Positions 2,086 through 2,355 of a stretch of 64,000 bases of DNA are shown here, in pieces (within the stretch, counting starts at the first letter, position 1; each line of letters opens with the position of its first letter). The stretch comes from Candidatus Latescibacterota bacterium. GTDB taxonomy: Bacteria > Latescibacterota > UBA2968 > GCA-2709665. The notes under the pieces are model-generated. The model did not search any database, was not told the DNA's origin, and saw only the letters and a list, made by a program, of their open reading frames with translations. The position numbers were made by a program, and so were the translations under genes. Location of the stretch: positions 1,408,001 to 1,472,000 of the forward strand of contig OZ220733.1 of assembly GCA_965116875.1 (NCBI GenBank). Reading direction: 5' to 3'.

Positions 2086-2114
2086 TTGACTCTCTCGATG
2101 TGATTGTTTAATGT
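2086..2114 (+). promoter_or_regulatory. Putative sigma70 promoter of the trp/aro leader
   Basis: TTGACT (2086-2091), 17-nt spacer, TAATGT (2109-2114). Confidence 0.55.
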
Positions 2115-2193
2115 TAGACCGTTCCTGCCGAAGCGGTTGTTTGCCGTTGCGCGGCACGAAACCGGCAGGACACCGGATCGTGGAGGATTGAAC

Positions 2194-2301
2194 GTGACCG
2201 ATCGGAATCGAAACGGGTTTTCCTGGCGTGGGTATTTTTATCGCTCCTACCGGAGGTATTACCGGGAGGCCTCGGATTGTTGTGTCTGCCCACGCGAGTA
2301 A
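2194..2301 (+). CDS. Aromatic-amino-acid-rich attenuator leader peptide (35 aa, MTDRNRNGFSWRGYFYRSYRRYYREASDCCVCPRE)
   Basis: GGAGG (2182-2186) 7 nt before GTG 2194; 8 aromatic codons (2 Phe, 1 Trp, 5 Tyr) within codons 9-23; directly upstream of a terminator and trpE. Confidence 0.8.
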   Translation: MTDRNRNGFSWRGYFYRSYRRYYREASDCCVCPRE

Positions 2302-2335
2302 ACTGCTGAAAGAGACGTAAACCGGGCCGTGGGCA
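2226..2335 (+). promoter_or_regulatory. Attenuator alternative pairings (1:2 protector and 2:3 antiterminator)
   Basis: GCGTGGGTA (2226-2234) can pair with TGCCCACGC (2287-2295); TGCCCACG (2287-2294) is the exact complement of CGTGGGCA (2328-2335), the 5' arm of the terminator. Confidence 0.8.
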
Positions 2336-2355
2336 TCTGCTCACGGTTTTTTTTT
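2327..2355 (+). terminator. Attenuator intrinsic terminator (3:4 hairpin)
   Basis: CCGTGGGC-atct-GCTCACGG stem-loop followed by 9 T, located 5' of trpE. Confidence 0.9.

Follow-up and report, generated by a model that had tools for sequence, protein, structure and literature searches.

A putative multivalent, tyrosine-dominated leader-peptide attenuator ahead of the trpE operon of a Candidatus Latescibacterota bacterium

Which aminoacyl-tRNA would a leader peptide report on when it stands ahead of trpE and holds a single tryptophan (Trp, W) codon? The question is raised by a stretch of 64,000 nucleotides (nt) from a Candidatus Latescibacterota bacterium (contig OZ220733.1 of assembly GCA_965116875.1, positions 1,408,001 to 1,472,000), hereafter the window, in which a mini-gene with one Trp, five tyrosine (Tyr, Y), two phenylalanine (Phe, F) and eight arginine (Arg, R) codons precedes a hairpin with a run of T, then trpE and a long series of aromatic-pathway genes (Table 1). 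An earlier note on this DNA had described a promoter, a GGAGG ribosome binding site, a 35-codon open reading frame (ORF), three pairing segments and a hairpin followed by nine T, and each of these is present where the note had placed it. We regard it as very likely that the locus is a leader-peptide attenuator of some kind and, judging from sequence comparison, probable that it is a multivalent, ribosome-mediated attenuator of the trpL type with mainly Tyr codons; it is likely that the Tyr codons are sensed, sensing of Trp appears well supported by comparison, and sensing of the Phe codons is somewhat doubtful.

The strongest evidence for regulatory Tyr codons is that leader codon make-up tracks the synthetase gene carried as cargo by the operon, a correspondence that the sequences of the class strongly support. 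Orthologous trpE (E <= 1e-80) was found in 75 of the 132 genomes of the class, namely in the window's own genome and 21/21 others of its family (f1), in 31/31 of family f2, 3/3 of f4 and 19/76 of f3. Seventy-four regions upstream of trpE were read, and an automatic rule scored 61 and left 13 unscored, five of the latter having an evident WWW leader with a T-run shorter than five and the others a short region or a wrongly chosen ORF. All 61 scored regions hold an aromatic short ORF and then a T-run (terminator). The 54 leaders of f1, f2 and f4 (12 genera) have per-genus means, over the last 28 codons, of 1.5 W, 3.9 Y and 3.1 F, with tandem WW in one leader of the 54 (an example leader is MNAFATYFWYFWRRFDGRYYYYRRPSKSVVCPAF), whereas the seven leaders of f3 (four genera) have means of 3.0 W, 1.4 Y and 1.1 F and tandem WW in every case (for example MTDNRTDNPRRWWWRFWSYETGQGCVHP). 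Mann-Whitney P values for this contrast, 0.004-0.007, are overstated because the genera are kin. The aromatic runs are retained across genera despite differing nucleotide sequence.

The synthetase genes are distributed in the same way. All 12 f1 and f2 loci, the window included, have tyrS in the operon, between trpF and trpB; all seven f3 loci have trpS in the operon, after trpC, and no tyrS; and in f4 one genus has tyrS in the operon and the other has neither gene. (The operon tyrS of one f4 genome, at L165:5656-6907, is read as two overlapping ORFs, a catalytic part and an S4 tail, through a frameshift or an assembly error.)

Synthetase genes that stand alone bear leaders of their own. In the window's genome a stand-alone trpS, about 1.59 Mb beyond the window start, has a leader (L180:1262-1475) with a promoter TTGACA-17-TATCGT, a tandem-Trp peptide (MAARCGNSGSWWRYDLNRTGQLTAC, beginning MAARCGNSGSWWRY), a strong terminator and a fold z-score of -4.35; the leader is kept in 15/15 genomes of the genus, 13 with WW or WWW and two with WRW. 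A stand-alone tyrS was matched in 69 of the 76 f3 genomes. Leaders were sought within 330 nt upstream, and at 21 of the 32 loci read there is a Tyr-containing short ORF and then a terminator, the terminator 23-40 nt before the gene (MMQNLRADRHYYYTPLHRQG, MTTHRLRAYYRYYRSPGAFD and MTFATTYRYYYSTSGG are examples, with motifs such as ..RHYYYT.. and ..AYYRYYR..); these loci include L224, L227, L228, L241, L244-L246, L249, L252 and L253. At five of the 21 the ORF contains just one Tyr, and at the other loci of the 32 the script found no ORF (six), picked an ORF without Tyr (four) or found no terminator (one). As a control on ORF choice, a candidate ORF with at least three Tyr codons was present in 12 of the 29 f3 tyrS loci with a terminator, and the same count was 1 for Phe, 0 for Trp, 0 for His, 2 for Asn and 2 for Lys. 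No Phe leader was seen in the upstream regions of pheA and pheS. Judging by these leaders, the synthetase genes of the lineage are commonly under predicted attenuators rather than T-boxes.

One history that would produce this pattern is that a tandem-Trp trpE leader took on a YYRYYR-like Tyr block when tyrS replaced trpS, the displaced synthetase keeping or gaining its cognate leader; we advance this tentatively and think it rather doubtful. The operons of the outgroup (three loci) hold no synthetase gene, and so give no polarity to the change between trpS and tyrS. If such a composite leader did arise, the class amounts to a natural swap experiment, which would show that leader codon make-up tracks cargo and that one attenuator can place the whole Trp pathway under mainly tyrosyl-tRNA control. 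Mixed leaders extend beyond the class: among 23 trpE upstream regions read in other classes of the phylum, W/Y-interleaved leaders are found in three families (..YWWYWRK.., ..RWYWRRF.., ..SYYDWVW..), families f9, f10, f12 and f13 show no such leader, and the pick in f14 (genus g48) is ambiguous. A scan for TrpE in other genomes found classic tandem-Trp leaders ahead of trpE in other phyla too.

At a smaller scale, the window was aligned with 14 genomes of the same genus (g1), giving 15 copies; the leader DNA is present in 14/14, at 74-92% identity. Both promoter hexamers are kept in all 15 copies, the -35 reading TTGACA in 14, and the region of the ribosome binding site is purine-rich throughout. 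The base of the 5' stem-loop (UCCUG.../...CAGGA) is kept in the 15 copies with one compensatory change, the tip being variable. The mini-gene is 35 codons long without a single indel in 15/15, and its GTG start is kept in 14, the fifteenth copy having GCG followed by an in-frame ATG at codon 2. Within codons 12-24, codon 21 excluded, there are six synonymous variant types and three non-synonymous ones, all of them Tyr to Phe, so that positions 14, 16, 19, 22 and 23, which are Tyr in the window, are aromatic in 15/15. Codon 11 is TGG in 13/15 and codon 21 in 10/15, and each copy has at least one Trp codon; F15 is invariant and F9 is not conserved. Segment 2 and the terminator are kept across the alignment, and the C-terminal half of the peptide is variable except for the codons that encode segment 2. 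The in-frame shift of the start and the conservation of codon class point to translation, and on this comparison the mini-gene is evidently translated; its core is so invariant that a constraint at the RNA level must act besides coding.

The earlier note had proposed that a single leader may integrate all three aromatic aminoacyl-tRNA pools. Codons of several amino acids are indeed conserved, and the proposal is well supported by comparison for Tyr, where five sites are aromatic in 15/15 and the codons follow tyrS or trpS, and for Trp; for Phe it is weak, with one invariant codon and with pheA (prephenate dehydratase) lying about 100 kb off, outside the cluster. Its expectation that the aromatic codons are conserved upstream of trpE in relatives is borne out both in the genus (15/15) and in the 61 scored regions of the class.

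Table 1. Coordinates of the leader elements and downstream genes, counted from the first letter of the window
Feature	Position	Strand	Details	Basis
Promoter P1	2086..2114	+	TTGACT 2086-2091, 17-nt spacer, TAATGT 2109-2114	sequence
5' stem-loop of leader transcript	2123..2170	+		minimum free energy fold
Shine-Dalgarno	2182..2186	+	GGAGG, 7 bases 5' of the GTG start	sequence
Leader mini-gene	2194..2301	+	GTG 2194 to TAA 2299-2301, 35 codons, MTDRNRNGFSWRGYFYRSYRRYYREASDCCVCPRE	open frame
Segment 1	2222..2235	+	GGCGTGGGTA 2225-2234, over codons S-W-R-G-Y; pairs with segment 2	
Inner hairpin	2246..2269	+	CCUACCGG(A/U)G-GUAU-UACCGGGAGG, codons Y19-E25	RNAalifold consensus
Segment 2	2287..2298	+	TGCCCACGCG 2287-2296, within UGCCCACGCGAG; last four codons; partner is segment 1 or 3	
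Segment 3	2328-2335	+	CGTGGGCA; 5' arm of terminator hairpin	
Segment 4	2339-2346	+	directly 5' of nine T (2347-2355)	
Intrinsic terminator (predicted)	2324..2355	+	core hairpin 2327-2346 and nine U 2347-2355	terminator scan
Putative regulated genes, short gaps	2424..15688	+	trpE, trpG, trpD, trpC, trpF, tyrS, HMGL-like, trpB, trpA, chorismate mutase, 3-deoxy-D-arabino-heptulosonate 7-phosphate (DAHP) synthase, tyrA, aroA	Pfam
trpE	2424-3905	+	start GTG 2424	Pfam
tyrS	7385-8647	+		Pfam
Small chorismate mutase	11751-12014	+		Pfam
aroE, ubiE, argS, aroK, aroB	16072..21389	+	same-strand continuation of the cluster	Pfam

Segments 1 and 3 are near-copies of each other, and segment 2 is complementary to both. 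W11, Y14, F15 and Y16 lie on or adjoining segment 1, and Y19-Y23 lie between segments 1 and 2. Segment 2 begins 13 nt 5' of the stop codon at this locus and 7-17 nt 5' of it in 26 of the 30 representatives scored (32 were tried, and no terminator was found in two). The terminator scan called 2324-2349 with 11 pairs, as one of two sites found against 1.3 +/- 1.2 in shuffles. Across 23 representatives of f1, f2 and f4 the terminator hairpin is paired in 97.0% of 230 cells, with three pairs changed on both sides, and the 2:3 helix in 80.8% of 229 cells, against at most 49.1% when the segments are slid; the 1:2 helix, followed within the genus, is paired in 93.3% of 165 cells. Family f3 keeps 2:3 with other sequences, UGCGUCC(R)C with G(Y)GGACGCA as against UGCCCAC with GUGGGCA. 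Thus the geometry of trpL and pheL leaders claimed by the earlier note, together with a translated mini-gene, is supported by the comparative data (35 codons in 15/15, the spacing of segment 2 from the stop in 26/30, and covariation in the terminator), but of the covarying stems that it had proposed to look for we find those of 3:4 alone, 1:2 and 2:3 being without covariation. The inner hairpin has nine pairs that are nearly invariant in the 15 copies, and these therefore neither support nor refute the fold.

We simulated the ribosome as a 30-nt mask in equilibrium folds. The terminator forms when no ribosome is present and also when one sits at the stop codon, and with the mask at Y16 and the transcript ending at 2338 the 2:3 helix forms with eight pairs. 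Masked folding of the kind that the earlier note had suggested yields a clean antiterminator at some stall positions only, as discussed below. Thermodynamics alone would therefore not decide the switch, which, like that of the classical model, would depend on kinetics.

Our observations are of the elements in the sequence, of how they are conserved and of how codon make-up corresponds to cargo; from these we infer every functional step, termination at 2355 and read-through included. Transcription would start from P1, and the mini-gene would be translated during its synthesis. With ample charged tRNA the ribosome would reach the stop at 2299 and cover segment 2, whereupon the 3:4 terminator would form and polymerase would halt at the U-run before trpE; with no translation, 1:2 would form and the outcome would again be termination. 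A stall at the aromatic codons on or just past segment 1 (F9, W11, Y14, F15, Y16 and perhaps Y19-Y23) would mask segment 1, segment 2 would pair with the emerging segment 3, and polymerase would read into trpE-G-D-C-F-tyrS-...-trpB-A and on through the genes for chorismate mutase and DAHP synthase, tyrA and aroA. Since the control region has five Tyr codons and one or two each for Trp and Phe, tyrosyl-tRNA would be the chief signal and tryptophanyl-tRNA a further one, with phenylalanyl-tRNA perhaps a third. The candidate regulatory codons are cognate to the cargo, since the operon encodes the Trp branch, tyrA, tyrS, chorismate mutase and DAHP synthase.

The main support for the leader is conservation rather than the statistics of the single sequence. 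In the window the 1:2 duplex has an energy of -20.9 kcal/mol (6/300 shuffles equally good), the 2:3 duplex -16.2 kcal/mol (35/300) and the 3:4 hairpin -12.9 kcal/mol for its core and -16.1 kcal/mol when extended, and the folding energy of the whole leader is ordinary against shuffles (z -0.65). Tyr is enriched in the mini-gene, at five of 34 residues against a background of 2.6% (P 1.7e-3), and the one Trp and two Phe have no significance on their own. A rare-codon argument was dropped: TAT and TTT make up 46% and 38% of their codon families in the operon genes, and so are not rare. Arg is likewise enriched (8/34 residues, P 6e-3), and the earlier note had mentioned the Arg codons together with the downstream argS. 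We reject them as an argS signal, a link made unlikely by the leaders of the stand-alone trpS and tyrS, where Arg codons sit beside the regulatory ones although no argS follows, as they sit beside the aromatic codons in every leader type of the lineage, and by Arg means that are alike in the two groups of trpE leaders (4.1 in f1, f2 and f4, 3.9 in f3). The consensus promoter scan left P1 uncalled because its -10 fits the consensus at only three of six positions, and the ORF list also gives the mini-gene frame from an upstream TTG at 2104, a position within the promoter.

Several observations weigh against a multivalent, Tyr-dominated attenuator. The contrast between tyrS and trpS operons represents about one evolutionary event, kin not being independent, and the f3 leaders are Trp-dominated even though chorismate mutase, tyrA and aro genes are part of their operons too. 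The core of 2:3 hardly varies, and so is conserved and not covarying; a formal test of pairing between segments 2 and 3 across clades is weak (18/29); and in the genus 11 of the 165 cells of the 1:2 helix are unpaired and uncompensated. With the mask at W11 or Y14 other pairings are obtained, a clean 2:3 being seen at some stall positions only, and the terminator persists in full-length masked folds. In this model stalls at Y19-Y23 would leave 1:2 possible, and perhaps only W11, Y14, F15 and Y16 act. Frame 2 is likewise open in 11 of the 15 genus copies. Lastly, the aroR leader of Corynebacterium glutamicum, which contains Tyr, is reported in a review (PMC11802643) as unresponsive to Tyr limitation, and the presence of a codon is therefore no guarantee that it is sensed.

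The last of these points bears equally on the rival explanation closest to ours, that of an attenuator in which only the one Trp codon (most relatives have two) is sensed, while those for Tyr and Phe are kept for other reasons, such as an AU-rich spacer, the inner hairpin or a property of the peptide. It would account for the Trp codon present in every genus copy, though either position can be lost; for a core that hardly varies, synonymous sites included, as expected under constraint on the RNA; and for f3 operons in which tyrA and aro genes stand under Trp-dominated leaders. It does less well with the aromatic runs held across genera while nucleotide sequences differ, with a core in which the sole amino-acid change is Tyr to Phe, and with the move from W-rich to Y/F-rich leaders where tyrS replaces trpS. 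Stand-alone tyrS genes, moreover, are preceded by Tyr leaders, some of which share the YYRYYR-like motif, and the window's genome uses tandem WW where trpS alone is controlled. According to PMC1183508, more regulatory codons give greater sensitivity and a single codon gives little. Taking these together we consider a Trp-only attenuator unlikely.

Two further explanations depart more widely from a multivalent attenuator. The promoter, mini-gene and terminator might be mainly a small unit of their own that yields a trans-acting peptide or small RNA, control of trpE being secondary, for which the Sinorhizobium trpL products rnTrpL and peTrpL are a precedent, and with which the strong promoter-like site between terminator and trpE in most other genera (as at L022, described below) would agree. 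We think this very improbable: genera g1 and g6 are without that site, the peptide is variable in its C-terminal half outside the codons of segment 2, and the idea leaves unexplained why codons follow cargo. Alternatively, the leader might not be ribosome-mediated at all, a protein, tRNA or ligand binding its RNA (as in T-box, TRAP-like or riboswitch-like systems, TRAP being the trp RNA-binding attenuation protein), or the nascent peptide might arrest the ribosome in response to a free amino acid, in the manner of TnaC. The high nucleotide conservation and the conserved inner hairpin could be so explained, and an aromatic, Arg-rich peptide could contact the ribosomal exit tunnel. The leader has no Rfam match at E <= 10 (1900-2500 searched), Trp_leader RF00513 and T-box RF00230 included, the window giving only two chance matches (E 1.3 and 8.4) and seven related loci none at E <= 1; related tandem-Trp leaders are also without a match, which means that the RF00513 model fails to reach this lineage. 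No TRAP gene (mtrB, PF02081) was found in the window's genome, which is 97.7% complete, in a search that was positive in a B. subtilis control. The in-frame start shift and codon-class conservation indicate translation, and arrest induced by a ligand would regulate a biosynthetic operon in the wrong direction, unless it fell over segment 2. Control of this kind is in our view most improbable, and a multivalent leader-peptide attenuator remains the reading that we favour.

Between the attenuator terminator and trpE, most other genera have a strong promoter-like site and a conserved box. At L022:1553-1582 the site is TTGACA, 18 nt and TATTAT (11/12), 22 nt past the terminator, and such a site occupies the same place in L016-L021, L023, L024, L114, L118, L122, L157 and L158. 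This suggests a second promoter, perhaps one controlled by a repressor. Genera g1 (that of the window) and g6 are without it, and trpE there would therefore depend on read-through.

Downstream of the leader, the terminator scan found no strong terminator between 2355 and 15688, and the genes from trpE to aroA are presumed to be co-transcribed. The five genes from aroE to aroB are set apart from this block by gaps of 384 nt (before aroE) and 273 nt, and their order is retained across the class. The operon tyrS is the only tyrS found in the genome, and the GTG start of trpE reads ATG in two genus copies. Some other features of the cluster were noted. The HMGL-like (aldolase/synthase-type) gene between tyrS and trpB (8744-9721, + strand) occurs, among the genera examined, in g1, g6 and g10 only. 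The genes ubiE and argS (16941-19669, +) are embedded among the shikimate genes, and the position of argS is kept in all four families of the class, bar loci that stop short of it. At 215 nt the interval from trpE to trpG (3906-4119) is far longer than in the other genera examined (mostly ~5-110 nt), and the one from aroA to aroE contains a hydrophobic ORF of 46 codons (MRLVVRLFLLALLVFLGG..., 15793-15933, +). A dispersed intergenic repeat, GGACTTTTYCAACGGGCTG, has four copies in the window, where none is expected (1096-1114, 4689-4707 and 31188-31206 on the - strand, 15962-15980 on the + strand), and is also found upstream of pheA (L179, ~1392-1415).

To our knowledge, nearly all known cases of leader-peptide attenuation come from Proteobacteria and Actinobacteria, and in most of them the leader reports on one amino acid. 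The earlier note had known of no characterised trpE leader dominated by Tyr, and we likewise found none, nor anything on this phylum, in searches of openly available full-text papers. From the sequences, the mechanism is very probably the textbook one and a mixed-codon, Tyr-dominated trpE leader an unusual form of it. The interest of the locus lies in a trpE leader, from an uncultured lineage, in which Tyr codons prevail and hardly any Trp codon is left, together with matching natural controls: operon trpS with a Trp leader, stand-alone tyrS with a Tyr leader and stand-alone trpS with a Trp leader. A few natural sequences thereby allow a direct test of the rule that codons follow cargo, and annotators may take the caution that a trp leader need not have tandem Trp codons.

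The closest model is E. coli trpL-trpE (the Yanofsky model; RF00513), with which the window shares a short ORF, translated in E. coli and evidently so here, before trpE, the capacity to form helices 1:2, 2:3 and 3:4, a stop codon sited so that a terminating ribosome would cover segment 2, a U-run terminator before the first structural gene and a W-R codon pair on segment 1. It differs in the lack of a sequence or model match, in an ORF of 35 codons as against 14, in having a lone Trp codon (most relatives have two), never in tandem, with five Tyr and two Phe, and in the further genes of its operon, which are tyrS, chorismate mutase, DAHP synthase, tyrA and aroA. Multivalent leaders are known from enterobacteria, where that of ilvGMEDA has Ile, Val and Leu codons and the thr leader Thr and Ile codons; as in the window, a single leader combines codons for more than one end product of its operon's pathways, but these are branched-chain amino acids or Thr and Ile, not aromatic ones, and the cargo includes no aminoacyl-tRNA synthetase. 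Among aromatic leaders, C. glutamicum aroR (Phe-Tyr-Phe), which lies ahead of aroF, responds to Phe and not to Tyr limitation according to the review cited above (PMC11802643). It resembles the window leader in its mixed aromatic codons, its aromatic-pathway operon and ribosome stalling, and is unlike it in preceding DAHP synthase and not trpE, in having no Trp codon and three codons as against eight, and in belonging to a different lineage. Synthetase genes under leaders with cognate codons are represented by E. coli pheM-pheST and by the attenuators predicted ahead of trpS and leuS in Streptomyces (PMC1262725), and the stand-alone trpS and tyrS of this lineage appear to follow the same arrangement; in the window, unlike these cases, tyrS sits inside a biosynthetic operon, behind a leader that combines Tyr with Trp codons.

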